A program made the translations under genes and the position numbers. Shown here piece after piece: positions 44,266-63,529 of a DNA stretch of 64,000 bases; position 1 is the stretch's first letter; the number at the start of each line of letters is the position of its first letter. Source of the stretch: Candidatus Omnitrophota bacterium (GTDB taxonomy: Bacteria > Omnitrophota > Gorgyraeia > Zapsychrales > JANLHA01); assembly GCA_020632535.1 (NCBI GenBank), contig JACKFJ010000008.1:463-64462 (forward strand), given 5' to 3'. The notes under the pieces were generated by a model, which did no database searches, was not told the DNA's origin, and saw nothing but the letters and a program-made list of their open reading frames with translations.

Positions 44266-44417
44266 TTGACCAAGACCTCTTGAAAATTTTGGCTTGTCCG
44301 GCTTGCCGCGCCAGCGTTGAGCATAAAGAGGAAAAGATTGTTTGTGTTAAATGTGGACGCCGTTATCCAATCAAGAATGGTATTCCGGTCATGCTTGTTG
44401 ACGAAGCAGAAAAATAG
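44262..44417 (+). CDS. Trm112/UPF0434 (YcaR)-family zinc-ribbon protein
   Basis: 51-aa ORF below ORF-track cutoff: MIDQDLLKILACPACRASVEHKEEKIVCVKCGRRYPIKNGIPVMLVDEAEK; ATGA overlap with the upstream stop. Confidence 0.8.
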   Translation: MIDQDLLKILACPACRASVEHKEEKIVCVKCGRRYPIKNGIPVMLVDEAEK

Positions 44418-44436
44418 CTGATTTTTACATAATATT

Positions 44437-44874: not shown

Positions 44875-44893
44875 TTATTGTCGTGAGGTTTGA

Positions 44894-45940: not shown

Positions 45941-45963
45941 ATTAAGAATTAGGGTAATTATTT

Positions 45964-46991: not shown

Positions 46992-47039
46992 GATTAGCTA
47001 AGAAAGCTAATTTCGTTAATTGTTGCCTTCCTGTCACCT

Positions 47040-48401: not shown

Positions 48402-48757
48402 CAGGATTTAATAAAATTGATTCAGGATTGATCAATTATCATAATCATGTGATTGCTGATATCGCGAAAGCGGCGGTCGAAGAAGTTGATGGTGTAACTT
48501 TGATTCCACAGGATTTTAGTGACACGATGCTTGAACTTTTAGGAGCTAAGCGCTGTTCAGGCGTTGAGGTTCATGTTGACCGTGGAGCTAATGCCGTATC
48601 GCTTGAAGTCAAAGTGCGCGTTCGTTATGGTTTAAATATTCCTGATACAGCCTTACATGTGCAGGAGATGATTCGCGAAAAGTTTGACCAGCTTACCGAT
48701 ATTGATTTAAGGGATGTTAATGTCAATGTTCAGGGAATTGAGAGGGGTGCGGCATGA
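48398..48757 (+). CDS. Asp23/Gls24-family envelope stress protein
   Basis: [15 protein letters not shown], typical Asp23 alternating beta pattern; ATGA overlap with accC. Confidence 0.8.
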
Positions 48758-49416
48758 GGTTGATTACAAAACTCGCGATTTTATTTTATGGCGTTATGAT
48801 TTTAACGTTAGCTTGTTTTCTGGGGCTTTTTGTTTTGCATTTAATCAGTTTGGCTGATGTGATTTTCCTTGCCGAGACTGTTTATAATGATCATCAGCTT
48901 CGTATGATTGCCGGATGCGGAGCGCTGTTGATTTTTTTAATAAATTGGTTTTTTATCGAGGCGATTTCTGGAAAAGAGCAGCGTGAAAAGAATATCGCAT
49001 TCGATAATCCGGTTGGACGTGTCACGGTGTCTTTGATTGCGATGGAAGATATGGCCCGCAGGATTTGCTTGAAATTTAGTGAAGTTAAGGATGTTCGCGC
49101 TGTGCGGATTAAAGCCACGAAGCGTGGTTTGGATGTACGTTTGAACTTAGCTTTATGTAGTGATGTGAAGATTCCAATGGTGACTGCGAATCTTCAGGAA
49201 ATTATTAAGCATAAAATTATTGAAACAATGTGGGTCAAGGCGCAGGAGCCATTTGTGATCGGTGCTACAACCGGAGGCATTGAAGAAAAGGTTACGGTTC
49301 GCATTGATGTCACTCGCATTGTTGGTAGTGATAAAAGATTAAGTGATAGTGAAAGTACTCTTAAATCGGTTAGTAATTTACAGCCGACCGTGCCGTTTCA
49401 GGGATATCGCGCCTAA
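48754..49416 (+). CDS. membrane protein with Asp23-like domain (AmaP-like anchor)
   Basis: Two N-terminal TM helices, then GRVTVSLIAMEDMARRI...VKDVR; ATGA overlap with the Asp23 gene. Confidence 0.6.
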   Translation: MRLITKLAILFYGVMILTLACFLGLFVLHLISLADVIFLAETVYNDHQLRMIAGCGALLIFLINWFFIEAISGKEQREKNIAFDNPVGRVTVSLIAMEDMARRICLKFSEVKDVRAVRIKATKRGLDVRLNLALCSDVKIPMVTANLQEIIKHKIIETMWVKAQEPFVIGATTGGIEEKVTVRIDVTRIVGSDKRLSDSESTLKSVSNLQPTVPFQGYRA

Positions 49417-49469
49417 TAAGACTGTTGTGTGCATAGAGATATTGAGTTAAATAAAGGCAGGTTGAATTA

Positions 49470-50492
49470 ATGAAGAAAATAGGCATTTTGACTGGTGGCG
49501 CAGATTGTCCGGGTTTGAATTCTGTTATTCGTGCCGTTGTGCGTAAAGGTATGCAAGAAGGTTATGTCGTTGCTGGCATCAAAAATGGCTGGCTTGGTCT
49601 TGTTGAAAATGATATGCGTATTCTTGATATCCGTCAGACATCCGGCATCCTTGATAAAGGTGGTACGATTCTGGGGACCAGCCGCGTTAATTTATTAGAT
49701 CAGCCTGATCAAATCCAACAACTTTCCGAAAATTATAAACGCAGTGGGTTAGATGCCTTGATTGCCGTGGGAGGAGAAGAAACTTTAAAAATCGCTCTTA
49801 AGCTTCATCAAGATGGCCATATTAAAGTTGTGGGTGTTCCTAAATCTATTGATAACGCACTTTCGGGGACTGATTATGCTTTTGGTTTTGATACGGCGGT
49901 TAATGTTGCGACGGAATGCATTGATCGTTTGCACACGACAGCGGAAAGTCATCATCGCATTATTGTTATTGAAGTCATGGGGCGGTATACGGGATGGATC
50001 GCTTTGGAAGCAGGGATCGCCGGCGGGGCTGATGAAATTTTAGTTCCGGAAATCCCAACAGATTTGCGAAAGATTTGTGAAGATGTCAAAGCTCGTCATC
50101 GTCGCGGTCGTAACTTTAGTATTATTGTGGTTTCGGAAGGCGCCTCGGTTTTTGGATATAATAAAGAGGCTGTTCCTCAAGGTGAGCGTCGTCGATTTGG
50201 TTATGTGGGCGAAATTGTTGCCAAAATGATTGAAGAAAGCACTGGCTTTGAAACTCGTGTCAGCGTTCTAGGTCACATTCAGCGTGGCGGGACTCCGACG
50301 GCATATGATCGTATTATCGGAACACAGTTTGGTGTTAAGGCGGTTGATTTAATTAAACAGGAAAAGTTTGGTCAAATGGTGAGTTTGCGTGACGGTAAAT
50401 TACAGTCTGTAGATATTGCGGAAGCGGTTTTGACGCGAAAAAAGATTGATATGGAGTTATACGAGTTGGCAAAAGTTTTCTTTGCCTCATAA
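49470..50492 (+). CDS. pfk: 6-phosphofructokinase, probably PPi-dependent type
   Basis: KKIGILTGGADCPGLN, GGEET, PKSIDNA, MGRYTGW, GHIQRGG; Lys at the E. coli Gly124-equivalent position. Confidence 0.88.
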   Translation: MKKIGILTGGADCPGLNSVIRAVVRKGMQEGYVVAGIKNGWLGLVENDMRILDIRQTSGILDKGGTILGTSRVNLLDQPDQIQQLSENYKRSGLDALIAVGGEETLKIALKLHQDGHIKVVGVPKSIDNALSGTDYAFGFDTAVNVATECIDRLHTTAESHHRIIVIEVMGRYTGWIALEAGIAGGADEILVPEIPTDLRKICEDVKARHRRGRNFSIIVVSEGASVFGYNKEAVPQGERRRFGYVGEIVAKMIEESTGFETRVSVLGHIQRGGTPTAYDRIIGTQFGVKAVDLIKQEKFGQMVSLRDGKLQSVDIAEAVLTRKKIDMELYELAKVFFAS

Positions 50493-50498
50493 AAGGAC

Positions 50499-51071
50499 AT
50501 GATGAAAGATCGAATTAAGAAAAATTTTGAGCAATCAATTGAAGTTAAGAAATTGAGTCTTGAAAAGAATTTGGACGTTATAGAAGAAGCCGTAAAGCTC
50601 GTTACAAAATCTTTGAATGCCGGTGGTAAAATATTGATCTTTGGGAATGGCGGTTCCGCGGCCGACAGTCAGCATATTGCCGCGGAATTTATCGGTCGTT
50701 TTGTGAAAGAGCGACGGGCGCTTCCAGCGATTGCTTTGACGACAGATACCTCAGCATTAACGGCTCTTGGGAATGATTATTCTTTTGACATCGTATTTAG
50801 TCGTCAAATTGAAGCTTTGGGTAAAAAGGGCGATGTGGCCATCGGAATATCAACGAGTGGTAATTCTAAAAATGTTTTGGAAGGCATTCAAAAGGCTAAG
50901 GATTTGGGATTAATAACGATTACGCTGACTGGAAATGATGGCGGTAAACTCGCACCCCTGTCGGATTTGAAGCTTATTGTTCCGTCGAAGGTTACGGCTC
51001 GCATTCAAGAATCGCATATTCTTATGGCACATACAATTTGTGAATTGGTTGAAGAGCAGTTTAGTCAGTAG
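50499..51071 (+). CDS. gmhA: D-sedoheptulose-7-phosphate isomerase (SIS domain)
   Basis: ILIFGNGGSAADSQHIAAEF, ALTTDTS, GISTSGNS. Confidence 0.88.
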   Translation: MMKDRIKKNFEQSIEVKKLSLEKNLDVIEEAVKLVTKSLNAGGKILIFGNGGSAADSQHIAAEFIGRFVKERRALPAIALTTDTSALTALGNDYSFDIVFSRQIEALGKKGDVAIGISTSGNSKNVLEGIQKAKDLGLITITLTGNDGGKLAPLSDLKLIVPSKVTARIQESHILMAHTICELVEEQFSQ

Positions 51072-51077
51072 AAATTT

Positions 51078-51563
51078 ATGGTCGACATTACACGAAAAAT
51101 TGTTTCTGCTGGTTCTTTGAAAAGAAAATTATCTGCATTGCGCCGAAATGGTAAAAAAATCGCCTTTACCAATGGATGTTTTGACATTCTACATTTTGGG
51201 CATGTGAGTTATTTAGAAACGGCAAAAAAGACGAATCGTGTGCTTGTCGTGGGTTTGAATAGTGATGTATCTGTCAAGCGTTTGAAGGGACGTGGTCGTC
51301 CAGTTAACAGTGAGCTTAATCGCGCCGGTGTACTTGCTGGTTTAGCCGCGGTTGACTATGTTGTGATTTTTACGCAAGACACACCCGCTAACCTTATTGC
51401 TACGCTTAAGCCAGATATTCTAATCAAGGGCGCTGATTGGGAAGGTAAAGAAATCGTTGGCGCTGATATTGTCCGCAAGAATGGCGGCAAGGTGGAACTT
51501 ATTAAATATCTTAACGGATTGTCCACGAGCAATATTGTTAAAAAGATCAAAGGCCGTGGTTAA
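51078..51563 (+). CDS. hldC: D-glycero-beta-D-manno-heptose-1-phosphate adenylyltransferase (HldE domain II-like)
   Basis: Cytidylyltransferase fold [28 protein letters not shown] tail; 161 aa, no kinase domain. Confidence 0.8.
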
Positions 51564-51582
51564 AGATAGTAATTCCAAATTT

Positions 51583-51990
51583 TTGCGGGTGATTGACGCG
51601 AATTATAATCGCGCGAAAGAAGGATTGCGGGTTTGTGAAGATGTGTGTCGGTTTTGGATTGATGATGGAAAATTGACCAAAATTTTTAAAAGTGTTCGGC
51701 ATCGATTGACGGTAAGTATTTTGAAGTTGGGTTTTAAAGAGATACTCGCCGAACGTGATGTCGAGGGTGACATGGGGCGCGTAACAATCAAGTCAGAAGC
51801 AAGACGAAAAAGTGCAGCCGATGTTTTTTATGCGAACTGTCAGCGGGTCAAAGAGTCTTTAAGAGTATTGGAGGAATTTGCAAAATTACGCAATTCTGCC
51901 ACGTCAGCAAGCATTAAGAAGCTGCGATATGAAGTTTATAGTGTTGAAAAGAAGGTATTAATGTCAATGACACAATGTGATGATTCATAA
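51583..51990 (+). CDS. conserved hypothetical protein resembling the accessory N-terminal domain seen fused to some ThiE proteins
   Basis: RVIDANYNRAKEGLRVCEDVCRFWIDD...VKESLRVLEEFAKL. Start uncertain: TTG 51583 or GTG 51589 after the hldC stop, and the only in-frame ATG (51457) is 107 nt inside hldC. Overlaps thiE by 14 nt. The domain assignment is from memory. Confidence 0.5.
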   Translation: MRVIDANYNRAKEGLRVCEDVCRFWIDDGKLTKIFKSVRHRLTVSILKLGFKEILAERDVEGDMGRVTIKSEARRKSAADVFYANCQRVKESLRVLEEFAKLRNSATSASIKKLRYEVYSVEKKVLMSMTQCDDS

Positions 51991-52630
51991 GAAAAGGATT
52001 TTACAGGCCGCGCGATTTTATGTTGTTTTAGACAGTGATGTCGCAGATTTTAAAAAGTTGTTTGGGATATTTAAAAAAACAGTTGATGCTGGTGCCGGTA
52101 TTGTCCAGTTGCGCAGCAAGTATGGGTCAGCAACAGATATCTTAGATTTTTCTAAGAAGGCTATTGAATACGCGCAAGGTCGAGCATTATTTATTGTCAA
52201 TGATCGGGCGGATTTTGCGATTGCAAGTGGATGCGATGGTGTTCATTTAGGTCAGGATGATGTGTCTTTAAAACAAGCGCGAGCGATTTTAGGGTTTAAA
52301 TTTTTGATTGGGATTTCTTGTCAGACACTCGATCAAGCTCGACGGGCGCAAAAAGACGGTGCTGACTATATTGGTTTTGGTTCGGTATTTAAGACTCAGA
52401 CTAAACCAGAACGTCAGCAGATGGATTTGAAGCTTTTGTTAAAGGTTAGTCGGGAAATAAAAATTCCAGTGTTTTTTATCGGGGGTATTACACTTGATAA
52501 TATTTCGCAAGTTATGATAAATGGCGGTCAACGTATCGCCGTGACGCGTGCGATTTGCGAAGCTAAAAATGTTGCCGTCGTGACAAAAAAGTTTTTGTTT
52601 CATTGCGAGGAACGTAGTAAGGGAGTCTAA
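51977..52630 (+). CDS. thiE: thiamine-phosphate synthase
   Basis: FYVVLDSD, IVQLRSK, FIVNDRADFAIASGCDGVHLGQDD, GADYIGFGSVFKTQTK, FFIGGI; the last about 10 codons run into the palindromic repeat. Confidence 0.9.
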   Translation: MMIHKKRILQAARFYVVLDSDVADFKKLFGIFKKTVDAGAGIVQLRSKYGSATDILDFSKKAIEYAQGRALFIVNDRADFAIASGCDGVHLGQDDVSLKQARAILGFKFLIGISCQTLDQARRAQKDGADYIGFGSVFKTQTKPERQQMDLKLLLKVSREIKIPVFFIGGITLDNISQVMINGGQRIAVTRAICEAKNVAVVTKKFLFHCEERSKGV

Positions 52631-52703
52631 TAGGAACTTCCTTCGTTTGCAATCGATTGCTGGTTGCTTCGTCGCCCGCGGCCTCCTCGCGGCGGTAGTT
52701 ATT
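52600..52703. repeat. palindromic intergenic repeat element (copy 2) between thiE and tRNA-Gly
   Basis: TCATTGCGAGGA...TTTGCAATC|GATTGCTGGTTGCTTCGTCGCCCGCGGCCTCCTCGCGG. Has a perfect 12-nt palindrome GCAATCGATTGC at 52649-52660, GCGAGGA/TCCTCGC arms, and an internal CCGCG/CGCGG stem. Confidence 0.5.
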
Positions 52704-52777
52704 GCGAGGGTAATTCAATGGTAGAATGGTAGCTTCCCAAGCTATCTACGCGGGTTCGATTCCCGTCCCTCGCTCCA
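52704..52777 (+). tRNA. tRNA-Gly (anticodon CCC), CCA encoded
   Basis: Hand-folded: acceptor GCGAGGG/CCCTCGC, D arm ATTC/GAAT, anticodon stem GTAGC/GCTAT with loop TTCCCAA, T arm GCGGG-TTCGATT-CCCGT, discriminator T then CCA. Confidence 0.9.
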
Positions 52778-52790
52778 AAAGTTTAGGGGA

Positions 52791-53510
52791 TTGATTTTGG
52801 TGAGAAAAATTTTGTATAGTGTTGGTTCTTTGGTTTTAGGTCTTGCGATGATTTCGGCGTCTGGTTGTATGACCGTCGATTCGGGCATGAGTTCGTCCGC
52901 GTACCGCAATCAAAAAGGTGTCAATCATAAAGTTCAAAAAGGGGAAACCCTCTGGCGAATAGCGAAAACGTATCAGGTTGATATCGATGATATTATCCGC
53001 AGCAACAATATCCCCAACGGCGCTCACCTTGAAGAAAACCAATTGATTTTTATTCCTGGCGTCGACAATGTTCGATCTGTTGAACGCGTCGTGACATCAT
53101 CGACGCCTCCAAAAAGCACAGCAACTTTTGAACCAATTAAAGATGACTTTGGTTGGCCGGTTAAAGGTCGTGTTTCTCGTTATTTCGGTGATCAGCGTTC
53201 GTCCTATTTGAGTCGTGGAATAGGGATTGAGACTATGGAAGGACAGCCAGTCGTGGCTTCTCGTCAGGGTAAAGTTGTTTTTGCTGATTATTTGGCTGGA
53301 TACTATTACACTGTTATTTTGGATCATCTCGACGGATATTTTACCGTGTATGGATTTAATTCGAAGCTGACTGTGAATTTGGGCGACACCGTTGTCAAGG
53401 GCGAAAAAATTGGCCTTACCGGCAAGAAGGGAAATACGCCGCTTTTGTATTTTGAGATACGACGTTATGCGAAGGCGGAGAATCCATTGTACTTTTTACC
53501 AAATATTTAA
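52791..53510 (+). CDS. LysM + degenerate LytM (M23-like) domain protein, NlpD/EnvC-type amidase-activator candidate
   Basis: TTG start; lipoprotein-like signal (LGLAMISASGC); LysM HKVQKGETLWRIAKTYQVDIDDIIRSNNI. M23 fold is present, but the HxxxD and HxH positions read SRGIGIE, YGF and LLYFEIR. Confidence 0.8.
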   Translation: MILVRKILYSVGSLVLGLAMISASGCMTVDSGMSSSAYRNQKGVNHKVQKGETLWRIAKTYQVDIDDIIRSNNIPNGAHLEENQLIFIPGVDNVRSVERVVTSSTPPKSTATFEPIKDDFGWPVKGRVSRYFGDQRSSYLSRGIGIETMEGQPVVASRQGKVVFADYLAGYYYTVILDHLDGYFTVYGFNSKLTVNLGDTVVKGEKIGLTGKKGNTPLLYFEIRRYAKAENPLYFLPNI

Positions 53511-53518
53511 AGGATTTT

Positions 53519-55171
53519 ATGAATAGTGTTGGACAAGAACAATTTTATGGACGCAAAAAGAAGCTGGATCTTTTAAAGCGCCGTGTTCTTGATCTTAAAG
53601 AGGGTTATCGACAGAACATGGCCTTTCTGGGAGATCGTTACACCGGAAAAACCATGATTGTGCAGAAATTCCTCGCGGATCTTGATGACGCGCAAATTGT
53701 TCCCGTCTACATTGATCTTGAAAATGCGGATTTGTCGCACTTTTTTTATAAATTAGTTGGTAGTCTTCTATATCATTATAGTCAGGGACATGGCCTTGCT
53801 GTCGCAGATGATTTGACATTACTCATGAATACGACGGAGGGGCATTTACCAGAAACGGTTAAGGCGGTTAAAAGAATTAAAAGTCTTTTAGCCCAGAATC
53901 GTGAGCGGGAAGCGTATCTTGAAATTATCAGTTTGCCGCAAACTTTTGCGCAGGAAGGGAATGTGTTTTGTGTTCTTTTTTTTGATGAATTTCAGCATTT
54001 GGAAGATTTTGGGATTACCGATGAGTTTTTAGAATTAGGCAAAAGAATCATGACACAGCGTCGCTGTTTGTATGTTGTGACCAGTTCTTTGTTGTGGTCG
54101 GCGCAAAAAATTCTCACCGAAAAACTTTCTTTGCTTTTTGGAAATTTTGAAATCATTGAAATTCAACCATTCGATTTGAAATCCAGCCAAGAGTTTATTC
54201 GCTTTCAGCTTAAAGGATTGCGAATGAGCGATCAGCTTGTGCATTTCGTGATTGATTTTACGGGTGGGCATCCCTTATATTTGACCCTTATTTGTGAAGA
54301 ATTGCGGGCATTGTGCGCTTCGCATAAACAATTTGAAATATTTTTGCCGTTATTAACGGTCGCGATGGAAAGTATTCTCAATGAGCGTTGGGGTGTTCTT
54401 AGTCGTCATTTTGATCTTGTTGTGGAGCGTATTGCCGCGGGCAAGGGCAATGTCGTTGTTTTACGAATTCTTTTATCGCTTGCGGACGGGCGGCAAAAAA
54501 TCACAGAATTGAGTGGGAGCTTAAATCTTAAGCAGGCGATGGTTACTGCGAAGATCAATCGTTTATTGGAACTTGGAATTGTTGCTAAAAACGGAAATAA
54601 TTTTTATCTGCCAGATAGGCTTTTTAAGTATTGGTTAAAATTTATTTTTTATAAGCGACGCAATGTCATCAAAGATTTAGAAGACAGACAGCAGGAAGAG
54701 TTTCGGCAGGAATTTTGTCGTGCGTATGAAATGTTGTGCGCTAACGCGAAGAAAGATGTTTCATCCCAGATTCTTGAACTTTTGTCTTGTTTTGAAAATG
54801 AATCTTTATTAATCAATGGGCGTCGTTATAAATTACCGGTTTTTCGGCAAATGACACCAACACGGGTTATTATGAAGGCCGGAGGACATTTGGATTTGAT
54901 TCGTGCGGTTTCTGATGATGGGGAATGGATTATTGTATTGAAACCGGGTGCCGTCGGAGAGAATGAAATCAACCATGTTCTAGCTGAAACAAAAAAGATT
55001 ATTCATAAGCCGCAACGGTGCGTTTTAATTTCATTTGATCATCTTGATGAAAGTGCGCGTATTCGCGCTTTGCAAGAACGGATGTGGATTTGGAATGAAG
55101 GTGAATTGAATATGCTCACATCGATTTTTGGCAAATCTTTAATTGCTTGTCCAGCTGAGGTCAAAGTGTAA
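53519..55171 (+). CDS. AAA+ ATPase (Arch_ATPase/ATPase_2-like) with winged-helix and DUF234-like C-terminal domain
   Basis: FYGRKKKLDLL...GDRYTGKT (Walker A), VLFFDEFQHL (Walker B), wHTH ITELSGSLNLKQAMVTAKINRLLELGIV, C-terminal GHLDLIRAVSDDGEWIIVLKPG. Confidence 0.7.
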   Translation: MNSVGQEQFYGRKKKLDLLKRRVLDLKEGYRQNMAFLGDRYTGKTMIVQKFLADLDDAQIVPVYIDLENADLSHFFYKLVGSLLYHYSQGHGLAVADDLTLLMNTTEGHLPETVKAVKRIKSLLAQNREREAYLEIISLPQTFAQEGNVFCVLFFDEFQHLEDFGITDEFLELGKRIMTQRRCLYVVTSSLLWSAQKILTEKLSLLFGNFEIIEIQPFDLKSSQEFIRFQLKGLRMSDQLVHFVIDFTGGHPLYLTLICEELRALCASHKQFEIFLPLLTVAMESILNERWGVLSRHFDLVVERIAAGKGNVVVLRILLSLADGRQKITELSGSLNLKQAMVTAKINRLLELGIVAKNGNNFYLPDRLFKYWLKFIFYKRRNVIKDLEDRQQEEFRQEFCRAYEMLCANAKKDVSSQILELLSCFENESLLINGRRYKLPVFRQMTPTRVIMKAGGHLDLIRAVSDDGEWIIVLKPGAVGENEINHVLAETKKIIHKPQRCVLISFDHLDESARIRALQERMWIWNEGELNMLTSIFGKSLIACPAEVKV

Positions 55172-55654
55172 ATGATGAGGATCGGCGTTGTTTCAGATAC
55201 ACATTCTCTTGAATTACCAAGACTGATGCTTAAAGATTTTAAGTCTGTGGATTTAATCATTCACGCCGGAGATTTTTGTGATACCGCGGATTATGAGGCT
55301 CTCGCCCAGATTAAGGAAGTTAAAGCGGTTTACGGCAATATGGATACACCCGCGATTCGAAAGCTTTTCCCTCGACGACAAATTATAAAATTAGGCGCGT
55401 TTTCGGTTGGCCTTTTTCATGGTGAAGGCCCACCAAAAACAATTCTAGAGAAAGTCAAATCTGAATTTAAGGATGACAAGGTTGATATGGTTATTTTTGG
55501 TCATTCCCATCAGCCTTTTAATCAAATAATCGGTCATGTTCGTTATTTTAACCCCGGCAGTCCCAATGATAAAATTTTTGCGCCCTATTGTTCGTACGGT
55601 ATCGTTGAAGTTGCCAATAAAGATTTTAGTGTGAAGCATGTCAACATTAAATAA
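55172..55654 (+). CDS. YfcE/MJ0936-family metallophosphoesterase
   Basis: RIGVVSDTHS, IHAGDF, GNMD, FHGE, FGHSH; starts immediately after the ATPase stop. Confidence 0.85.
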   Translation: MMRIGVVSDTHSLELPRLMLKDFKSVDLIIHAGDFCDTADYEALAQIKEVKAVYGNMDTPAIRKLFPRRQIIKLGAFSVGLFHGEGPPKTILEKVKSEFKDDKVDMVIFGHSHQPFNQIIGHVRYFNPGSPNDKIFAPYCSYGIVEVANKDFSVKHVNIK

Positions 55655-56171
55655 AGGTAGTAAAAAAGATATGGATAAACTTTGGGCGCCTTGGCGTGTC
55701 AAATATGTCACAAAAATTATTGGTAAAACGAGGGGTTGTGTGTTCTGCCGCATGTTGAAAGCGAAGAACGACAAGAAAAATCTCATTTTTGCGCGTTCGA
55801 CTAAAAGTTTCGCGGTCTTGAATCTGTACCCGTACAATAATGGCCATATTTTACTTTTGCCTAGTCGGCATGTCGCGGACTTGAGTCAATTGCGTGAGGA
55901 AGAAATTTTAGATTTGTTTCGACTTTTAAATTATGCGAAATCTCTTCTTCATAAAGCTTTAAAACCGGCAGGATATAATATAGGAATAAATTTAGGACGA
56001 ATTGCTGGCGCGGGATTTCCGGGTCATTTGCATATTCATGTGGTTCCACGTTGGAAAGGCGATGTCAATTTTATGCCGGTTCTCGCCGGAACAAAAGTCA
56101 TTTCACAGTCATTGGCCACATTACACCAAAAACTAGAGCAACAGCATAAATTCGCATCAAAGCAAAAATAA
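55638..56171 (+). CDS. HIT-family nucleotide phosphorylase/hydrolase (Ap4A phosphorylase/GalT-like branch)
   Basis: LWAPWRVKYV, GCVFC, AVLNLYPYNNGHILLLP, histidine triad HLHIHVVPRW. Start may be ATG 55671 (MDKLWAPWR), which would remove the 17-nt overlap. Confidence 0.85.
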   Translation: MSTLNKGSKKDMDKLWAPWRVKYVTKIIGKTRGCVFCRMLKAKNDKKNLIFARSTKSFAVLNLYPYNNGHILLLPSRHVADLSQLREEEILDLFRLLNYAKSLLHKALKPAGYNIGINLGRIAGAGFPGHLHIHVVPRWKGDVNFMPVLAGTKVISQSLATLHQKLEQQHKFASKQK

Positions 56172-56184
56172 TTCTTTAGTCATT

Positions 56185-57351
56185 ATGCGTAATCGTCAAG
56201 ATATTGAAGCCCTTGAAAAGAAAACTCTCGCGCCTTACGCGATGAAAAGTGCTGACTCCGGCGATCGGATTCACAAAGAGCCGCAGCATCCCATACGGAC
56301 GTGTTATCAACGCGATCGTGATCGTATTGTTCATTCGGAAGCTTTTCGTAAGCTTGAGTATAAAACGCAGGTTTTTACGATTCTTGAAGGAGATTATTAT
56401 CGGACACGTTTGACGCATACTATTGAAGTCGCGCAAATTGGCCGCACGATAGGCCGTAGTTTAATGCTCAATGAGGATTTAATTGAGGCCATTGCTTTAG
56501 CACACGATTTAGGACATCCACCGTTTGGTCATGCCGGTGAGCATGCTCTGGATAATATTTTACGAAAAGCAAAACTTCCGGGTTTTAATCACAATAAGCA
56601 TAGTTTTGAGATTTTGACGCGATTAGAAAAAAGATATCCAGATTTTGACGGTTTGAATCTTACTCCCGAAGTTCTTGTTGGTATTCTTAAACATAAAACG
56701 GTTTATGATCTGCCGGAAAAAACCAAGCATTTCTTTGATGAAGGAACAACGCTCGAAGCTCAGGTTGTGGATTTGGCGGATTCTCTCGCCTATCTTAATC
56801 ATGATATCGACGATGGATTGACGTCGGGGTGCATTACTGAGGAAGATTTGACCGACAGCGTTCTATGGCAGAAAGCATTAGCGCGCATCGGCGGCGCGAA
56901 AAATTTTACCAATCGGGATATGCTTAAATATCAAGTTGTCAAAGCGCTTATTGATATGCAGATCAAAGATCTATTAGAATTCACTGATGGTCGATTAAAG
57001 AATATTGCTTTTGCTTCATCGGCGGAAGTCAAGAAATCTAAAACGGATGTGATATCGTTTAGTCCGCAAATGAAAAGGGAAAGAGTCTTTCTTCAAAATT
57101 TATTGAATCAAAAACTTTATCATCATTATCGTGTCGTGCGTATGACATCCAAAGCACAACGCATTATTGATGATTTATTCGCAGTATATGTTCAGGAGCC
57201 TCATCAGCTTTCACCACAAGTATATTCGCGTAGAAAGAAATACACAAAAACACAGAAGTACGAAGTCATTTGTAATTATATTGCATCGATGACAGACCGA
57301 TACGCTCTTGAGGAACACAAGAAATTTTTTAATCCTTACGCTTTGGTGTAA
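56185..57351 (+). CDS. dGTPase-like deoxynucleoside triphosphate triphosphohydrolase (HD domain)
   Basis: RTCYQRDRDRIVHSEAFRKLEYKTQVF, RLTHTIEVAQIGR, AHDLGHPPFGH, DIDDG. Confidence 0.85.
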   Translation: MRNRQDIEALEKKTLAPYAMKSADSGDRIHKEPQHPIRTCYQRDRDRIVHSEAFRKLEYKTQVFTILEGDYYRTRLTHTIEVAQIGRTIGRSLMLNEDLIEAIALAHDLGHPPFGHAGEHALDNILRKAKLPGFNHNKHSFEILTRLEKRYPDFDGLNLTPEVLVGILKHKTVYDLPEKTKHFFDEGTTLEAQVVDLADSLAYLNHDIDDGLTSGCITEEDLTDSVLWQKALARIGGAKNFTNRDMLKYQVVKALIDMQIKDLLEFTDGRLKNIAFASSAEVKKSKTDVISFSPQMKRERVFLQNLLNQKLYHHYRVVRMTSKAQRIIDDLFAVYVQEPHQLSPQVYSRRKKYTKTQKYEVICNYIASMTDRYALEEHKKFFNPYALV

Positions 57352-57353
57352 AT

Positions 57354-58451
57354 GTGCTAAATCATTCATCGAGAAAGAAAATATTAAAGCAATCGAATGG
57401 GCAGTCTTTAGAAAAGCGTTATACGTTGATTCTATCGGCGGTGCACATGGTGTATCGCCTTGTTAATTCGACGTACAATGTTCGCGAATTGACTTTGCGT
57501 CTTACTCGTCTTCTTTGTCAATTTATTAAGGCCAGTTCGGCGAGTGTTTATATTCTTGATCCGTTAAACCGTAAAGTTATTCTTGTCGCTATTTTTAACA
57601 ATCAAATCAATATTTTGCTCGATAAACGCAATGAGCTTAAAAATATCAGTGATGTTGAGATTCGTGTAACGGAAGGTTATCCTTTGATTGAAAAGCGGGT
57701 GATCGGATTGCCCTTGATTGCCGACGATAATATTGGCGCGATTTTTATTGAACGAAAGAATAGTGAATCGCCTTTTACGGATTTTGACCGCGAAATGCTT
57801 TCAGTTTTTGCCGAACAATCTGTGACCGCGATTAAGAAATTACAACTTTACGAGGAACAGCAACAAACTATTCTCGGAAGCATTCAGTTTATTGATAAGC
57901 TTCTTAAGCGGAAGGGTTATCAAGCGCTTGTGCATGCTCCGGCGTATTTTAGTGTCATGAGGGCGATCGCGGAGAAAATGAACCTTGGACAAGACGCGAT
58001 TGAGTGTTTACAATACGCGAGTATGTTGCATGATGCGGGTGCTGTGGATGTTCCTTTTGAAATTTTATCAAAAACCAGTCAGCTGACACCGGAAGAATTT
58101 AAGATTATTCGCGATTTGCCGACGAAGAGCGCAGAGTTGATTAAGCCGGTTGCTTTTTTGCGGCCTATTTTGCCGATTATTTTATATCATCGCGAAAAAT
58201 ATGATGGGACAGGATATCCTTCAGGTTTAAAGAAGGAGCAAATTCCGGTCGGAGCGCGTATTATGGCGGTGGTGGATGCCTTTGAGGCAATGACGCGTGG
58301 CCGTCCGTACAAACGTAAGCTTAGTTTGGATGCCGCACTCGACGAATTAATCCGCAATAGTGGGACACAGTTTGATCCCAAGGTTGTTAATTGTTTTCGT
58401 GATCTTTACAAGCAAAAAAAGTTTCGAAAATTCTTGAGTAAACTCCAATAA
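57354..58451 (+). CDS. GAF domain + HD-GYP domain protein (cyclic-di-nucleotide phosphodiesterase family)
   Basis: GTG start; GAF-like N-half; MLHDAGAV, YHREKYDGTGYPSGL, GTQFDP. Confidence 0.85.
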   Translation: MLNHSSRKKILKQSNGQSLEKRYTLILSAVHMVYRLVNSTYNVRELTLRLTRLLCQFIKASSASVYILDPLNRKVILVAIFNNQINILLDKRNELKNISDVEIRVTEGYPLIEKRVIGLPLIADDNIGAIFIERKNSESPFTDFDREMLSVFAEQSVTAIKKLQLYEEQQQTILGSIQFIDKLLKRKGYQALVHAPAYFSVMRAIAEKMNLGQDAIECLQYASMLHDAGAVDVPFEILSKTSQLTPEEFKIIRDLPTKSAELIKPVAFLRPILPIILYHREKYDGTGYPSGLKKEQIPVGARIMAVVDAFEAMTRGRPYKRKLSLDAALDELIRNSGTQFDPKVVNCFRDLYKQKKFRKFLSKLQ

Positions 58452-58470
58452 TTCTTTATATAATTAAAAT

Positions 58471-59106
58471 ATGAATATCCACTTTGGGAATCAATCCCAG
58501 TTTGAACTTTTTCCTGGAACAACTGGCGAGCCTATTGAAAATAGCGCGCCTTCATTTATTTTTAGTCGTGTTGTTTTGACATTCGAGAATTTAGTTGTGA
58601 TTTTTGTTTTTATGATTGTGAGTTTGATCATTGCTTTTTCAGTGGGTGTTGAACGTGGACGCATGAAGGCTCGTATCGCTCGTCCAGCTGGGCAAATTGC
58701 TGCTCCCGCGCAGGTCATGGGCAGTGTCATGCCCAATCCGCAAATTTCGATTACGCCGGTGATGCCTCAAACAATGGTAAGAACTGCTCCTGTGATGGTT
58801 GGAACAGCTGAGGCGGCTCGTGAAGTTCCTCAACGGACGGTTGCGGTGCCAGCCAGTGCCCAAACTCCCCCTAGAGAGAAAGTTGTTGACAAAGGATACA
58901 CCGTTCAGGTAGCATCTTACAAAAAAGAATCCATAGCTGTGAGGGAGGCTAAGGATTTAAAGGCAAAAGGGTTTGATAGCTTCGTGGCTCAAAAGGGTGA
59001 TTATTCCATTCTTTGTATTGGTCGGTTTTCGCAGCAAGATGAAGCGAAGCAAATGCTCAACAAACTTAAAAAACGCTATAAAGATAGCATAATAAGGAGT
59101 TTTTAA
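58471..59106 (+). CDS. SPOR-domain membrane protein
   Basis: One TM helix, Pro/Ala/Met-rich linker, C-terminal SPOR YTVQVASYKKESIAVREAKDLKAKGFDSFV...LCIGRFSQQDEAKQMLNKLKK. Confidence 0.8.
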   Translation: MNIHFGNQSQFELFPGTTGEPIENSAPSFIFSRVVLTFENLVVIFVFMIVSLIIAFSVGVERGRMKARIARPAGQIAAPAQVMGSVMPNPQISITPVMPQTMVRTAPVMVGTAEAAREVPQRTVAVPASAQTPPREKVVDKGYTVQVASYKKESIAVREAKDLKAKGFDSFVAQKGDYSILCIGRFSQQDEAKQMLNKLKKRYKDSIIRSF

Positions 59107-59366
59107 TGTCTTTGCACACGTCACTTAAAATTGATACTGCTGGCGCACAACAACGTTCAGTATTAACGCGTATTGAACGTATGAAGGAAATGATGAAAAA
59201 GGGTCTATGGAAAGATGATCGCAGCGCGATTGGTCTTCCGAAGACAAAGATTGTCAAGCTTAAAGCTCGCAAAGCTGTTAAAGAAGTTAAAGCTGAAGAT
59301 GGTGCTGCTCCAGCTGCCGGAGCCAAAGGCGCTCCAGCCGCAAAAGCTGCAGCTCCTAAAAAATGA
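59106..59366 (+). CDS. small basic protein (resembles the TIGR04137 'small basic protein' family, from memory)
   Basis: MSLHTSLKIDTAG..RSVLTRIERMKEMMKKGLW....IGLPKTKIVKLK; Ala/Lys-rich tail; TAATG overlap with the SPOR gene. Confidence 0.6.
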   Translation: MSLHTSLKIDTAGAQQRSVLTRIERMKEMMKKGLWKDDRSAIGLPKTKIVKLKARKAVKEVKAEDGAAPAAGAKGAPAAKAAAPKK

Positions 59367-59415
59367 GGGTGGTTTCTTGCTTTTATTTTGAGCAAGGCTT
59401 GTCAGTTCTTCGTAG

Positions 59416-60201
59416 TTGGATTCGAGGGATCTCAGGTTGAAAATTTTTATAATCATTTGGAGTCTCTTGTGTTTCGGTGTGAGTCATGCCCAAGCGCAGG
59501 AGACTTTTCCTTTTGTGGCTAAAGTGACCGCCAAGTCGGTTCATCTTCGCGCTGGCCCCAATGCCAATTTTGAATCTCTTGATCAACTTGAAAATGGCGA
59601 TGAATTTATTGTGGTGGATGCGAGTTTTGATTGGCGTAAAGTTAAGCTTCCCGCTGACGCCAAAGCTTATGTCCATGCTGGCTTTGTGAAAGATTTAGGG
59701 CAAGGTGTGGGTCAAGTGACAGGTAATCGTCTTAATATTCGTGCAGCGGCCTTAACAAATGCTTCCATTATTGGGCAATCGAAGAAGGGTGATTTGATTC
59801 GTATTTTTGAAAAGAAAGATGATTGGCTTCGTATTGAACCGCCAGATCAAAGTTTTGGTTGGATTTTAAAGGATTTTATTGAATTCAAATCTGCTACGAT
59901 ACCGCCTGTTCGTGTTGTGCAATTGCCAACAAAAAGTAAAAAGGAAGATACGACGACTTCGGTGCTGCAGGTGGCTAGGGTTTCTGTTATGGGTGTCGTT
60001 GAAGATTTAGGGACGAACGCTGTTGGTGCGGATATTCGGCATTTTTTGCAAAGTGATAATACCGTTTATAATCTCAAAGGTTATCGACATGTGTTGGATG
60101 GTTTTCGTCATCAAAGAGTCAAGATGGAAGGTCTGTTAAAACCTGACGCGAAGTCAGGCAATCCGGTTGTCCTCGTAACAAAAATTACACTCGTTCTCTA
60201 A
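59416..60201 (+). CDS. secreted protein with two bacterial SH3 domains
   Basis: Signal peptide ...LLCFGVSHAQA; SH3b-like repeats VTAKSVHLRAGPNANFESLDQLENGDEFIVV..WRKVKL and VTGNRLNIRAAALTNASIIGQSKKGDLIRIF..WLRIE. The start codon is non-ATG and uncertain. Confidence 0.7.
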   Translation: MDSRDLRLKIFIIIWSLLCFGVSHAQAQETFPFVAKVTAKSVHLRAGPNANFESLDQLENGDEFIVVDASFDWRKVKLPADAKAYVHAGFVKDLGQGVGQVTGNRLNIRAAALTNASIIGQSKKGDLIRIFEKKDDWLRIEPPDQSFGWILKDFIEFKSATIPPVRVVQLPTKSKKEDTTTSVLQVARVSVMGVVEDLGTNAVGADIRHFLQSDNTVYNLKGYRHVLDGFRHQRVKMEGLLKPDAKSGNPVVLVTKITLVL

Positions 60202-60241
60202 ACTCTCCGCAATATTTGCTTGGTCGTCATTTTCTGCTACA

Positions 60242-60853
60242 ATGCACATCATGAATGTTGATATATTACTTGTTTTAGAGATTATTTTTATTTTGGGCAC
60301 GGCTGTGATTTTGCACGAATACGCGCATGGCTGGGCTGCTTTGAAACTTGGTGATCCCACGGCAAAAATATTGGGGCGATTGACTTTAAATCCGATCAAG
60401 CATATTGATCCGATTGGGACAATTTTGGTTCCAATTATCACAAAATTAACTTTAGGATTTCCTTTTGGTTGGGCTAAGCCAGTACCGGTTAATTTTGCTA
60501 ATTTGCGTAATCCTAAGCAAGACATGATTTTTGTTGCTTTGGCCGGACCTGCGACGAATATTGTGCTCGCGCTAATTGCGACTCTTCTTTTGCCGTTAAG
60601 TCCGGATCTTTTTATCATGGCCATCGGGATCAATTTGATGTTAGCGATTTTTAATATGATTCCAATTCCCCCGCTCGATGGTTCACGTGTCGTCGCAGGG
60701 TTATTGCCAACTCCGTTGGCCAGACAATATTTGTATCTTGAGCCTTTTGGTTTTATTATTCTTCTTGTGTTGATTCAGGTTGGAGCATTTAATTTTCTTG
60801 GTTATTTTGTAATGACACTCATAAAAATTCTTGTAGGTCAGTGGGCAGCTTAA
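60242..60853 (+). CDS. site-2 protease family (M50) membrane metalloprotease
   Basis: HEYAHGWAALKLGD (HExxH), several TM segments, NMIPIPPLDG. Confidence 0.85.
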   Translation: MHIMNVDILLVLEIIFILGTAVILHEYAHGWAALKLGDPTAKILGRLTLNPIKHIDPIGTILVPIITKLTLGFPFGWAKPVPVNFANLRNPKQDMIFVALAGPATNIVLALIATLLLPLSPDLFIMAIGINLMLAIFNMIPIPPLDGSRVVAGLLPTPLARQYLYLEPFGFIILLVLIQVGAFNFLGYFVMTLIKILVGQWAA

Positions 60854-60867
60854 GAAAGGTATCTTTC

Positions 60868-61956
60868 ATGTCATTAAGTCTAAAGGTCAATCTCCGTGAT
60901 AATAGTTATAAGATTGTGATTGGTCATAACATTTTGCAGGATCTTGGCGGAGAACTCAAAGCATTAAATTTAAATGGTGATGCGATTATTATTACGCATC
61001 CTGTCTTAAAGAAATATTATGGTAAAGTTTTAGAAAAAAGTTTAGCAAGTGTTGGTTTTGGTGTGAAGTTCTTTGCTATTGCTGAGGGGGAAGAGAGCAA
61101 ATCTGCAAAGGTCTTTATAAAGCTCCTTGAGGAAATTGCCAAATACGATGAAAACAAAAGTATTTTTATTGTCGCTTTAGGCGGGGGCGTTATTGGAGAC
61201 GTTTCTGGATTTGTCGCGGCGACATATCGTCGTGGGATACCGTATGTGCAGGTACCGACAACTCTTTTGGCGCAAATTGATTCTGCAATTGGTGGCAAGA
61301 CAGCCATTGATTTGTCAGTTGGAAAAAATCTCGCGGGAGCATTTTATCAGCCCATATTGGTTTACAGCGATGTCGCGGTTTTGGCGACATTGGATAAACG
61401 CCAGATTCGTAATGGTCTTAGTGAGGCGGTTAAGTATGGTGTTATTTCTGACCGACGATTATTTGATTTTATCGCCCGTCATGTCTCGAAGTTGATTAAT
61501 TTGGATTCTAAAGTACTTTCGGAAATTGTTTATCAATGTAGCCGCATAAAGGCAAAAGTTGTGGAACAAGATGAAAAGGAAACTAAAAGCATCCGTACAA
61601 TTCTAAATTTTGGTCATACGATCGGGCATGCCATTGAAGCGGCTGGAAAATTTCGAGTCTATCAGCATGGTGAGGCAGTAGCTTTGGGTATGCGTGTGGC
61701 GTCGGAACTTTCAGTGCGTCTAAAATATTTGACGGCAAAAGAGGCTGCGACTTTAGGGGGAGTTTTGTCAGATATCGGATTACCGGAAAAAATTAGCGGT
61801 GTTAAACTTCCAGAAATTTTAAAGCATATGATGCACGATAAAAAATTCAAAGCCGGAAAACCGCGTTTTGTTCTCGCCACGGGTCTGGGTACAGTAAAAG
61901 TCGTTGAAGGTGTTTCTATTGTTGACATTAAAGCTGCAATCCAGAGTTATCTATAG
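60868..61956 (+). CDS. aroB: 3-dehydroquinate synthase
   Basis: GGGVIGDVSGFVAATYRRGIPYVQVPTTLLAQIDSAIGGKTAIDL, NFGHTIGHAIE, HGEAVALG; internal ATG 60868 preferred because ORF-track 60841 overlaps the M50 gene. Confidence 0.93.
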   Translation: MSLSLKVNLRDNSYKIVIGHNILQDLGGELKALNLNGDAIIITHPVLKKYYGKVLEKSLASVGFGVKFFAIAEGEESKSAKVFIKLLEEIAKYDENKSIFIVALGGGVIGDVSGFVAATYRRGIPYVQVPTTLLAQIDSAIGGKTAIDLSVGKNLAGAFYQPILVYSDVAVLATLDKRQIRNGLSEAVKYGVISDRRLFDFIARHVSKLINLDSKVLSEIVYQCSRIKAKVVEQDEKETKSIRTILNFGHTIGHAIEAAGKFRVYQHGEAVALGMRVASELSVRLKYLTAKEAATLGGVLSDIGLPEKISGVKLPEILKHMMHDKKFKAGKPRFVLATGLGTVKVVEGVSIVDIKAAIQSYL

Positions 61957-62112: not shown

Positions 62113-62694
62113 TTATTTCGGACGGAGAACCTTAATCGTTCGAGGTAGCCCATTTTGAGTGATGTCTACACTGTCCGTTGTGATTTTTGTAATTGTTCCA
62201 TCCTCGACCATCTCCCCAGTTTCATAAAACTCATTATTAATCAACGCGAAATTCTTCCCATCCATAAAAACGATTCCGGTGAGGAGAATTTCACCTTTCT
62301 GGGGCTGTAGAGGCTGAGGCACAATTGGCGCAGGTATTTGGGGTGTGATTGTTTGTGTCGCGGGAGTATTGGGAGTGTGGCTTGGTTGTGAAGGAAATGG
62401 TTGAATTGACGTGGACGCAAAATTTGTTTTAGACATCCCTGCCGTACGCACTGTGAAATCATAAAGATTGTAGAACGTCACAGCGCTTATTGCTAATATC
62501 AAAAAACACCAGACAAAAATATTGTATGTAAAAGGTTTTCTTGCAACAACCGTCGTCGGAGTTGGCGCGGGTTTTGGTAAAGGCGCAGCCGGCCGGCTTT
62601 GGATTTTGACGGGTGGTGTTAGTGTGTCTTTATCGCTTTGAGTTTCAGAGCGATTCGACTGAACTTTTTTCAGGGCTTCGTGGATGATGCTCAT
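62113..62694 (-). CDS. gspB: GspB/ExeB-like secretion accessory protein
   Basis: N-terminus MSIIHEALKKVQ typical of GspB-type proteins, one TM helix, Pro/Thr/Gln-rich linker; immediately downstream of the gspA/exeA-like ATPase. Confidence 0.55.
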   Translation of the reverse strand: MSIIHEALKKVQSNRSETQSDKDTLTPPVKIQSRPAAPLPKPAPTPTTVVARKPFTYNIFVWCFLILAISAVTFYNLYDFTVRTAGMSKTNFASTSIQPFPSQPSHTPNTPATQTITPQIPAPIVPQPLQPQKGEILLTGIVFMDGKNFALINNEFYETGEMVEDGTITKITTDSVDITQNGLPRTIKVLRPK

Positions 62695-63529
62695 GATAAT
62701 TTCCGATTTCGCGAACAGCTTTTAAGGTAATGTTTTCGTCAATGACTTTGCTCCCTGTGACATAGCCTAATAATAATGCGCGATCGCAGATGATATTAAT
62801 AACGCGCGGTGTTCCTTGCGAATGGCCAAAAATAATTTCCACAGATCGGTCGGTAAAACGAACTGGAAGATTATCATGGGGAATTTCTATGTCGAGCGGT
62901 AAACGTCCGGCTATTTTAACACGATGTTCAATATAGCGGCCCACATCGTTTCGATCCAAAGGTAAGATATGATATCGTACGGCGACACGCTGTGTGAGTT
63001 GACGTAAAGCAGGGAGCTTTAATTTTTCCTGCAATTCCGGTTGGCCAACGAGAATAATCTGCAGAAGTTTTTCCTTCTCGGTTTCGAGATTAGATAAAAG
63101 GCGGATTTGTTCGAGTTGGTTGATCTTTAAATTTTGTGCCTCATCGATGACCAAGACGACATTATTCCCGAGTGTTGATTGTTCAATCAAGAAATTATTG
63201 AGCAATGAAATCAATGATAATTTGCTGCGAAAGTCTCCGGTTATTCCTAAATCCTTGACGATAAATTGTAAAAGTTGTAGTTCGGAAAAGTAGGGGTTTA
63301 AAACCAGTGCGGTTTTGATATTTGTGTGTAGACGGCCTAATAATGTGCGACAAATGGTGGTTTTGCCGGTGCCGATTTCGCCGGTAATGATCAAAATACC
63401 TTTGCGTTCTTGGATACCATAAACTAAGTGTGAAAAAGCTTCTTCATGTCGTTGGCTGGGAAAGAAGAACTCCGGATCCGATGTGACACTGAATGGTTGC
63501 TCAGAAAAGTTATAAAATTCTTTATACAC
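62645..63529 (-). CDS. gspA: ExeA/GspA/MshM-family AAA ATPase
   Basis: FYNFSEQPFSVTSDPEFFFPSQRHEEAF, Walker A GEIGTGKTT, Walker B VVLVIDEAQNL, GTPRVINIICD; 3' end overlaps gspB-like by 50 nt. Confidence 0.85.
   Translation of the reverse strand: MYKEFYNFSEQPFSVTSDPEFFFPSQRHEEAFSHLVYGIQERKGILIITGEIGTGKTTICRTLLGRLHTNIKTALVLNPYFSELQLLQFIVKDLGITGDFRSKLSLISLLNNFLIEQSTLGNNVVLVIDEAQNLKINQLEQIRLLSNLETEKEKLLQIILVGQPELQEKLKLPALRQLTQRVAVRYHILPLDRNDVGRYIEHRVKIAGRLPLDIEIPHDNLPVRFTDRSVEIIFGHSQGTPRVINIICDRALLLGYVTGSKVIDENITLKAVREIGNYHEHHPRSPEKSSVESL

Follow-up and report, generated by a model that had tools for sequence, protein, structure and literature searches.

When nine tightly packed genes follow one another on a single strand directly after a tRNA gene, do they form a system of their own, or a section of something longer? 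The question is raised by positions 52791–60201 of a 64,000-nt stretch of DNA from Candidatus Omnitrophota bacterium (contig JACKFJ010000008.1), referred to here as the window. The block combines envelope proteins, nucleotide hydrolases and an AAA+ ATPase with a winged helix-turn-helix (wHTH) domain, and the original prediction, made from the sequence alone, offered two readings: a module that wires cell-wall and division activity to nucleotide pools, or an anti-phage or stress module that works by nucleotide depletion. We find that the nine genes are probably a segment of a long, co-directional and vertically inherited housekeeping array, which holds, ahead of envelope genes, an inner module running from the ATPase gene to a GAF/HD-GYP gene. 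The block is neither mobile nor a self-contained system.

As first described, the block consists of nine plus-strand open reading frames (ORFs), all of which are present:

52791–53510, plus strand: LysM and degenerate LytM (M23) lipoprotein, NlpD/ActS-like (Pfam LysM 44 bits, Peptidase_M23 83 bits)
53519–55171, plus strand: AAA+ (ATPase_2 / Orc1-Cdc6-like) ATPase with wHTH and a C-terminal alpha/beta domain (550 aa)
55172–55654, plus strand: YfcE-family metallophosphoesterase (TIGR00040 101.8 bits against a cut-off of 56.25; Metallophos_2 121 bits)
55638–56171, plus strand: HIT-family protein (Pfam HIT 54.8 bits; HLHIHVV motif; start possibly the Met at 55671)
56185–57351, plus strand: dGTP/deoxynucleoside triphosphate (dNTP) triphosphohydrolase, Dgt (HD and HD_assoc; NF002326 431.1 bits, residues 10–384)
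57354–58451, plus strand: GAF and HD-GYP phosphodiesterase (HD_5 143.8 bits; weak GAF matches)
58471–59106, plus strand: membrane-anchored SPOR-domain protein, FtsN/DedD-like, of the septal-peptidoglycan-binding type (Pfam SPOR 49.4 bits)
59106–59366, plus strand: small basic protein (SBP) with a Lys/Ala-rich tail (TIGR04137 64.5 bits against a cut-off of 50, residues 1–49)
59416–60201, plus strand: secreted protein with two bacterial SH3 domains (SH3_3 69 bits in two stretches)

Re-measurement returned the same junctions of 8, 0, -17 (+16 if the Met at 55671 is the start), 13, 2, 19, -1 and 49 nt, and the same 13-nt gap between the tRNA-Gly gene and the first ORF. The domain calls were likewise borne out by profile and motif searches, with the exception of a 'DUF234-like' tail assigned to the ATPase.

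A conserved array of at least 26 genes

We scanned one genome per GTDB species with the ATPase alignment (337 relatives), kept the best 80 loci (43–79% identity) and mapped 26 window proteins onto them, each as far as the contig reaches. At least 26 genes, spanning positions 43852–61956 of the window, hold one order in all 80 Omnitrophota species genomes (L004–L083). From the 5′ end this order is DUF1844, aroQ, pepP, efp, accB, accC, asp23, asp23, pfk, gmhA, rfaE(II), thiD2, thiE, [tRNA-Gly], M23, ATPase, YfcE, HIT, Dgt, HD-GYP, SPOR, SBP, SH3, M50 and aroB, followed by two minus-strand genes. Given that the proteins are only 35–79% identical (median per gene), so stable a gene order is unusual. 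Losses are sporadic and affect HIT (L083), SH3 (L031, L060 and L080) and M50 (L019 and L044). The tRNA-Gly(CCC) gene occupies this position in 18 of the 20 window-type loci tested for it and in 9 more that keep the thiE/thiC context; it is one of the array's conserved members and does not mark an integration site.

Orthologues of the nine genes are thus not scattered among related genomes, an outcome that the original prediction had allowed for, but their adjacency merely equals that of the surrounding thiamine, glycolysis, fatty-acid, translation-factor and shikimate genes. Because the whole 26-gene stretch is equally syntenic, the adjacency of the nine is conserved but not specific. Junctions are tight all the way from aroQ to aroB, not merely inside the block, with gene starts in the junction statistics estimated heuristically. 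Three features of the window bear directly on where the block begins and ends:

52704–52777, plus strand: tRNA-Gly, anticodon CCC (ARAGORN; Rfam tRNA 66.9 bits)
60242–60853, plus strand: M50-family membrane peptidase gene (Pfam Peptidase_M50), 40 nt after the SH3 gene
60841–61956, plus strand: aroB (orthologue annotated DHQ_synthase), with a -13 nt junction to the M50 gene

Plus-strand genes fill nearly the whole window, from 296 to 61956 (n = 75); the gap between them has a median of 23 nt, and 66% of the junctions measure 50 nt or less. The longest run of such short junctions in the window comprises 10 junctions and 11 genes (52791–61956) and goes on through the M50 gene and aroB, so the 3′ limit at 60201 is arbitrary. 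By our own estimate, the chance of a 10-junction run among 74 junctions at the 66% background is about 0.4, and the length of the run is roughly what would be expected by chance in so dense a background. The GC content of the block (0.39–0.43, against 0.39–0.45 elsewhere in the window) is not atypical. The Rfam scan of positions 52000–61000 at E ≤ 0.1 returned the tRNA alone and no riboswitch, for cyclic diguanylate (c-di-GMP) or any other ligand. With surroundings equally dense, a run that spans 11 genes and typical composition, the idea of a distinct nine-gene unit did not hold up. Nor did that of a nine-gene system: in the window's own clade, adjacency within the block is no better conserved than that of thiE, pfk, accBC, efp and aroB around it. 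M23, YfcE, SPOR, SBP and SH3 are lost in other clades, where HIT and Dgt can each be missing as well.

These results bring forward the main rival to our interpretation, pure synteny inertia, under which the nine genes would be functionally unlinked, persistent leading-strand genes in a compact, rarely rearranging genome. It gains from the equal synteny, in the 80 genomes, of the unrelated efp, accBC, pfk, gmhA, thiE and aroB, from the equally tight junctions outside the block, and from the fact that HIT, Dgt and YfcE can each be lost. Persistent-gene clustering and supra-operonic synteny segments are, moreover, described phenomena (PMC2234087, PMC4873041). We nevertheless consider inertia an unlikely account of the locus as a whole, given the way in which the inner module behaves at breakpoints in more distant lineages.

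The 62-kb co-directional run of the window also spans rpoB/rpoC-sized ORFs (7459–15059) and probable ribosomal-protein genes, which suggests that genes in this Omnitrophota genome are very strongly biased towards the leading strand.

A cassette that persists where synteny is broken

In Omnitrophota, little can be argued from conserved adjacency alone: with more than 20 kb of unrelated housekeeping genes ordered alike in 80 genomes, neighbourhood arguments need lineages in which synteny is broken. We therefore turned to a deeper set made up of the neighbourhoods of distant ATPase homologues plus 80 further metagenome loci, annotated by tblastn. Across all arrangements, a GAF/HD-GYP gene lies downstream of the ATPase gene on the same strand in 107 of the 108 loci with at least 4.5 kb of downstream sequence. 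What lies between the two varies: YfcE-HIT-Dgt in 71 loci, HIT-Dgt in 19, HIT in 9, YfcE-Dgt in 3, Dgt in 3 and nothing in 1. The spacing from ATPase to HD-GYP shrinks to about 500 nt where HIT stands alone and to 129 nt where nothing intervenes, so the losses are real. The ATPase and HD-GYP genes are hence the two invariant members of the cassette, and HIT, Dgt and YfcE are optional.

Two contexts follow the HD-GYP gene. In at least 72 loci, including the window, SPOR and then SBP come next. In 31 others, which we call dcw-type after the division and cell wall (dcw) cluster, a small membrane protein and/or an OmpA-domain protein is followed by murE-murF-mraY-murD(-ftsW), at a distance of 0.7–1.7 kb from HD-GYP to murE in every case. 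The OmpA-domain protein (Pfam OmpA 70 bits) carries a lipobox (ATGC) and is on these grounds Pal-like; 7 of the 31 loci have instead two membrane proteins, neither with a significant domain match. The four mur genes that we searched for (murE, murF, mraY and murD) are all absent from the window itself. In the loci L084–L086 and L089–L137, about 1.5–12 kb past the ATPase gene, murE-murF-mraY-murD-ftsW is preceded by the cassette and not by mraZ-rsmH-ftsL-ftsI, and the genes between cassette and murE in dcw-type loci encode a small membrane protein, the Pal-like OmpA lipoprotein and an unannotated membrane protein.

Upstream of the cassette the dcw-type loci show no such constancy, with 15 different families directly adjacent to it in 28 loci. 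Variable upstream neighbours beside a fixed downstream order place the breakpoints just 5′ of the cassette, sparing both the cassette and its link to envelope genes. Intermediate forms also occur, namely thiE-tRNA-ATPase-HIT-Dgt-HD-GYP-...-murE (L113, L124 and L133), M23-ATPase-...-murE (L093, L117, L121 and L122) and HD-GYP-OmpA-SBP (L143). A neighbour-joining tree of the ATPase separates the arrangement types, and this agreement between tree and arrangement indicates vertical inheritance.

It is here that synteny inertia falls short. In 31 of 31 dcw-type loci, no breakpoint separates ATPase from HD-GYP or the cassette from the murE block, and the ATPase–HD-GYP pairing holds in almost every locus regardless of arrangement. 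Inertia explains the nine-gene block well, and the survival of the cassette at breakpoints less well.

An Omnitrophota family of AAA+/winged-helix ATPases

The ATPase is the least familiar member of the cassette. Pfam profiles ATPase_2, AAA_14 and AAA_16 match slightly under cut-off, with ATPase_2 (PF01637) at 29.4 bits against a gathering threshold of 33.2, and HTH_5 matches as well, the winged helix being ArsR/MarR-like. An alignment profile searched against the PDB matched 2FNA (Sulfolobus SSO1545) at E = 1.9e-6. The AlphaFold model built from the alignment (predicted local distance difference test score, pLDDT, 86; predicted TM-score, pTM, 0.82) places the AAA+ core and winged helix in residues 1 to about 365, and a fold search with it again returned 2FNA first (E = 1e-9; TM-score on target 0.68), followed by Orc1/Cdc6 proteins. 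The window ATPase thus shares with SSO1545 and Orc1/Cdc6 a core followed by a winged helix, with 2FNA ranked top by both profile and fold. It differs from SSO1545 in being only 18% identical, in carrying an extra conserved C-terminal domain of 160 aa, and in belonging to a family found only in Omnitrophota-labelled records.

The C-terminal 160 residues form a conserved, compact alpha/beta domain (model pLDDT 89). The original prediction had called this tail DUF234-like, a label that we reject at the sequence level: Pfam DUF234 (PF03008) is unmatched at E ≤ 10 in the C-terminal 160 aa of both clades, and neither the Pfam searches at that threshold nor PDB sequence searches gave anything significant. 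Foldseek returned weak matches to AF1548 and MspJI, which are restriction-endonuclease-like (TM-scores 0.46 and 0.36), and the C-terminus of the dcw-type ATPase has a marginal Mrr_cat match (E = 0.053). As no PD-(D/E)xK triad is common to the consensus sequences of both clades, the domain is best not regarded as an active nuclease.

The homologues, full-length and about 545 aa long, come from metagenome-assembled genomes (MAGs) of Candidatus Omnitrophota. At 50% identity and E ≤ 1e-30 the family forms 311 clusters of full-length proteins, and it extends to members with only 24–32% identity to the window protein. In a search started from such a distant member, every match bearing a taxon name was labelled Omnitrophica or Omnitrophota among the matches listed. 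Walker A is present in 165 of 167 orthologues, and Walker B and the wHTH are conserved as well.

An Orc1/Cdc6-like protein could point to chromosome biology, and a further alternative is that the ATPase acts on DNA in initiation, segregation or nucleoid occlusion, with Dgt and HIT tuning dNTP and diadenosine tetraphosphate (Ap4A) levels, so that the chromosome cycle would be coupled to division genes. After SSO1545, the best structural neighbours are indeed Orc1/Cdc6 initiators bound to origin DNA, the nucleotide-binding motifs and wHTH are conserved as just described, and the cassette heads the dcw genes in one set of clades. The fold similarity is, however, limited to the generic AAA+ and wHTH parts (TM-scores 0.36–0.45; 12–18% identity), several clades can do without Dgt and HIT, and the invariant partner is HD-GYP, a signalling enzyme. 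GC skew is positive in every 2-kb bin of the window (0.08–0.26) without a turning point, which places no origin in the vicinity. We judge a replication-linked role very unlikely.

The enzymes and envelope proteins around the ATPase

The HD-GYP protein, the other invariant member, has its HD motif at residue 226 and DGTGYP at residues 284–289, with DGxGYP retained in 115 of 122 orthologues; it is presumed to be a cyclic-dinucleotide hydrolase. In the three optional enzymes, too, the catalytic motifs are kept across the phylum. Dgt carries HDLGH, and HDxGH is found in 121 of 121 orthologues; 9 to 10 dcw-type loci genuinely lack the gene, their ATPase-to-HD-GYP distance being about 500 nt. The HIT protein belongs, by its sequence, to the Ap4A-phosphorylase-like branch, a predicted activity, as its match to the Ap4A phosphorylase / ATP adenylyltransferase model NF052622 (142.4 bits) lies below the cut-off of 290. 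HxHxH is kept in 140 of 141 HIT orthologues, and the gene is missing, for example, in L146 and L168 besides L083. The YfcE motifs DxH, GD, GNxD and GHxH are present in the window protein and intact in 100 of 100 orthologues. YfcE is confined to SPOR-type clades and is missing from all 31 dcw-type loci.

The M23 protein opens the block and lies directly upstream of the ATPase gene in 90 loci. Its best NCBIfam matches are ActS, DipM, EnvC and NlpD, every one below cut-off (ActS 96 against 375, NlpD 77 against 311, EnvC 86 against 270). Both the HxxxD and the HxH motif are missing and a lipobox, ISASGC, is present, which together make it a dead-LytM lipoprotein, in agreement with the original prediction. 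The degeneration extends across the phylum, as only 2 of 95 orthologues have HxH, and the protein is probably an amidase activator rather than a peptidase.

Downstream of the cassette, the SPOR protein scores 30 bits with the FtsN model TIGR02223, short of its cut-off of 107.65, the SPOR domain alone being matched. The start of SBP overlaps the SPOR stop by 1 nt, and the SPOR-to-SBP junction is 30 nt or less in 94% of loci. SBP has 21 Lys and Arg residues against 8 Asp and Glu. Its N-terminal 50 residues are 46–93% identical across Omnitrophota, its tail is histone-H1-like and rich in Ala, Lys and Pro, and its family, TIGR04137, is one described for Chlamydiae and Verrucomicrobia. A longer minus-strand ORF over the SBP gene (59066–59395) is probably spurious. 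The SH3 gene is clade-specific and, in addition to the three close relatives named above, is absent in L146 and L168.

The defence reading

A dGTPase with an ATPase-nuclease-like partner, set beside a tRNA gene, raises the possibility of an inserted anti-phage or stress module that depletes nucleotides. On the surface several observations fit. The PADLOC dGTPase model matches Dgt at E = 2e-96, weak and partial PADLOC matches exist for HIT (ThsC-like, 2e-9), the ATPase (PDC-S27, 1.5e-7) and YfcE (PDC-S10, 6e-8), the tRNA gene ends 13 nt upstream of the block, and the ATPase C-terminal domain is weakly restriction-endonuclease-like in fold. The PADLOC dGTPase model is, however, general to the family.

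The NCBIfam thresholds point the other way. Like housekeeping Dgt of NF002326 (the PRK01286 group), the window protein has HD and HD_assoc domains with HDxGH, and its full-length match exceeds the cut-off of that model (431 against 390 bits), which makes it a predicted housekeeping enzyme. In contrast, it stays below the cut-off of the anti-phage dGTPase model NF041026 (240.3 against 400 bits), strong as its match to the general PADLOC model is, and also below that of NF003701 (213.7 against 383 bits). The position and order of the locus are identical in all 80 species genomes, with none of the patchy distribution of an island; the tRNA gene belongs to the conserved array, and no repeat of its 3′ end resembling an attachment site (att) occurs within the window. 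Block composition is not atypical for the window, integrase and mobile-element genes are missing from the annotated neighbourhoods of relatives, the ATPase tree matches the arrangement types as expected under vertical descent, and the PD-(D/E)xK catalytic residues of the ATPase C-terminus are not conserved between clades. With a housekeeping Dgt, a fixed locus, a vertical ATPase tree and no att repeat, the defence reading was not borne out, and we regard it as extremely improbable. Automated defence finders would probably flag a false 'dGTPase' system at 56185–57351. This removes a false lead, in that a housekeeping Dgt, an ATPase and a tRNA gene resemble a defence island while phyletic pattern and NCBIfam thresholds say otherwise.

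A possible link between nucleotide signals and the envelope

The remaining part of the original prediction, that the block ties nucleotide pools to the cell wall, stands in reduced form. The cassette survives rearrangements and envelope genes follow it, and the association concerns this smaller core and not the nine-gene unit. Envelope genes in the same orientation consistently come directly after the cassette; in most arrangements one of them encodes a peptidoglycan-binding protein, and many loci have the dead-LytM gene ahead of the cassette. Comparative support for a cassette wired to the cell wall is limited.

Under the interpretation that we prefer, a housekeeping array with an inner module, the cassette would be co-transcribed with the envelope genes. 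Judging from its domains, the AAA+/wHTH protein may serve as an ATP-dependent DNA-binding regulator, and the HD-GYP enzyme, gated by its GAF domain, would act on a cyclic dinucleotide, c-di-GMP or a related molecule. HIT, Dgt and YfcE would handle Ap4A, dNTPs and phosphodiesters and, with HD-GYP, could set the levels of nucleotide signals. Envelope growth and division would in this way be expressed in concert with nucleotide housekeeping.

Several points weigh against this interpretation. Gene order is so stable in the phylum that adjacency may largely reflect inheritance rather than selection, and one ancestral rearrangement could account for both downstream contexts. HIT, Dgt and YfcE can each be missing in some clades, a pattern that speaks against an obligate machine of several enzymes. 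In a single locus, L140, the cassette is interrupted after HIT, so that ATPase-YfcE-HIT is followed by guaA and dnaE. The loci were picked as best ATPase matches, which leaves genomes without the ATPase unsampled, and they are not phylogenetically independent. The promoter and terminator scans are uninformative: terminator-like sites number 11 against 15.7 expected from shuffling, and promoter-like sites 49 against 32.9 expected, in a scan with a consensus that may not be that of Omnitrophota. In L140 (11599–19103), the genes that replace Dgt and HD-GYP are guaA (GMP synthase), dnaE (Pol III alpha) and a PilZ-T2SSE ATPase fusion.

A bolder version assigns the pair a central role: the ATPase and GAF/HD-GYP would be a lineage-specific master regulator of cell-wall synthesis and division, holding the place of MraZ/RsmH and reading nucleotide signals. 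We hold this to be rather improbable. If it were true, c-di-GMP-type, Ap4A and dNTP status would gate the expression or activity of murE-ftsW and of septal peptidoglycan factors, the latter being the dead-LytM activator and the SPOR and Pal-like proteins.

Comparison with known systems

In the canonical dcw cluster, MraZ and MraW hold the 5′ position (PMC8871954). The dcw-type clades resemble it in that genes for a DNA-binding protein and for enzymes lie tight and co-directional just upstream of murE-murF-mraY-murD-ftsW. The cassette differs in having no homology to MraZ or RsmH, and no ftsL or ftsI was recognised between it and murE; in the window clade, it is followed by SPOR, SBP, SH3, M50 and aroB, without mur genes.

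Another comparison is offered by surE-pcm-nlpD-rpoS of Escherichia coli, where the gene for NlpD, a LysM and degenerate LytM protein, stands beside those for the nucleotide phosphohydrolase SurE and a regulator. This is a conserved housekeeping and stationary-phase cluster, and we know of no direct mechanistic link among its members. The partner genes differ from those of the window, homology is limited to the NlpD-like protein, and even there the NlpD cut-off is not reached (77 against 311).

FleQ is a c-di-GMP-responsive AAA+ transcription factor with a DNA-binding domain. The likeness to the cassette is one of analogy only, with an AAA+ domain fused to a DNA-binding domain near a c-di-GMP-type phosphodiesterase, and with PilZ genes nearby in relatives. 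The two share no sequence or family relationship, and the window ATPase is without a sigma-54 interaction domain. The PilZ genes in question are two small PilZ-domain genes past an ExeA-like gene, found in L001 (19966–20936), L002 (20335–21455), L003 (20261–21025) and L088 (18894–19808). Their presence a few kb downstream shows that c-di-GMP signalling exists in these relatives, which in itself proves no link to the cassette. Together with the PilZ-T2SSE fusion in L140, they make genes for c-di-GMP receptors a repeated feature of the surroundings of the HD-GYP cassette.

Neighbouring genes and sequence records

Upstream of the block, the ThiD2 ORF (51457–51990) shares 107 nt with the rfaE-II-like gene before it; only 76% of the ORF is covered by orthologues, so the true start is probably further downstream. 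Beyond aroB, a divergent minus-strand pair (62113–63529) encodes a Pro-rich 193-aa protein without a Pfam match and an AAA_22 (ExeA/GspA-like) ATPase, and is kept at the same place in most related loci. In L087, the gene neighbouring the counterpart of this pair has a faint T2SSC match. The pair may serve in secretin assembly.

In L089 (1–8227), an ORF that exceeds 2,947 residues and runs off the end of the locus is found upstream of the cassette, in line with reports of giant proteins in Omnitrophota (bioRxiv 10.64898/2026.06.07.730766). Many of the MAG records with the locus (L004–L006, L009, L013, L065 and others) have the title 'uncultured Planctomycetales bacterium', and one has 'Elusimicrobia bacterium'; such titles are probably loose or wrong taxonomic labels.

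Implications for Omnitrophota

Open-access papers on Omnitrophota synteny, c-di-GMP, cell division and TIGR04137 contained no description of the cluster. What is new is an undescribed, lineage-specific conserved cassette in which ordinary enzyme families surround an uncharacterised AAA+/wHTH protein, a novelty that we consider modest. The cassette occurs across the phylum and, in two different arrangements, is linked physically to genes for peptidoglycan and division. It is thereby a testable candidate for the coupling of nucleotide signalling to envelope growth in these mostly uncultured bacteria related to the Planctomycetes-Verrucomicrobia-Chlamydiae (PVC) group.

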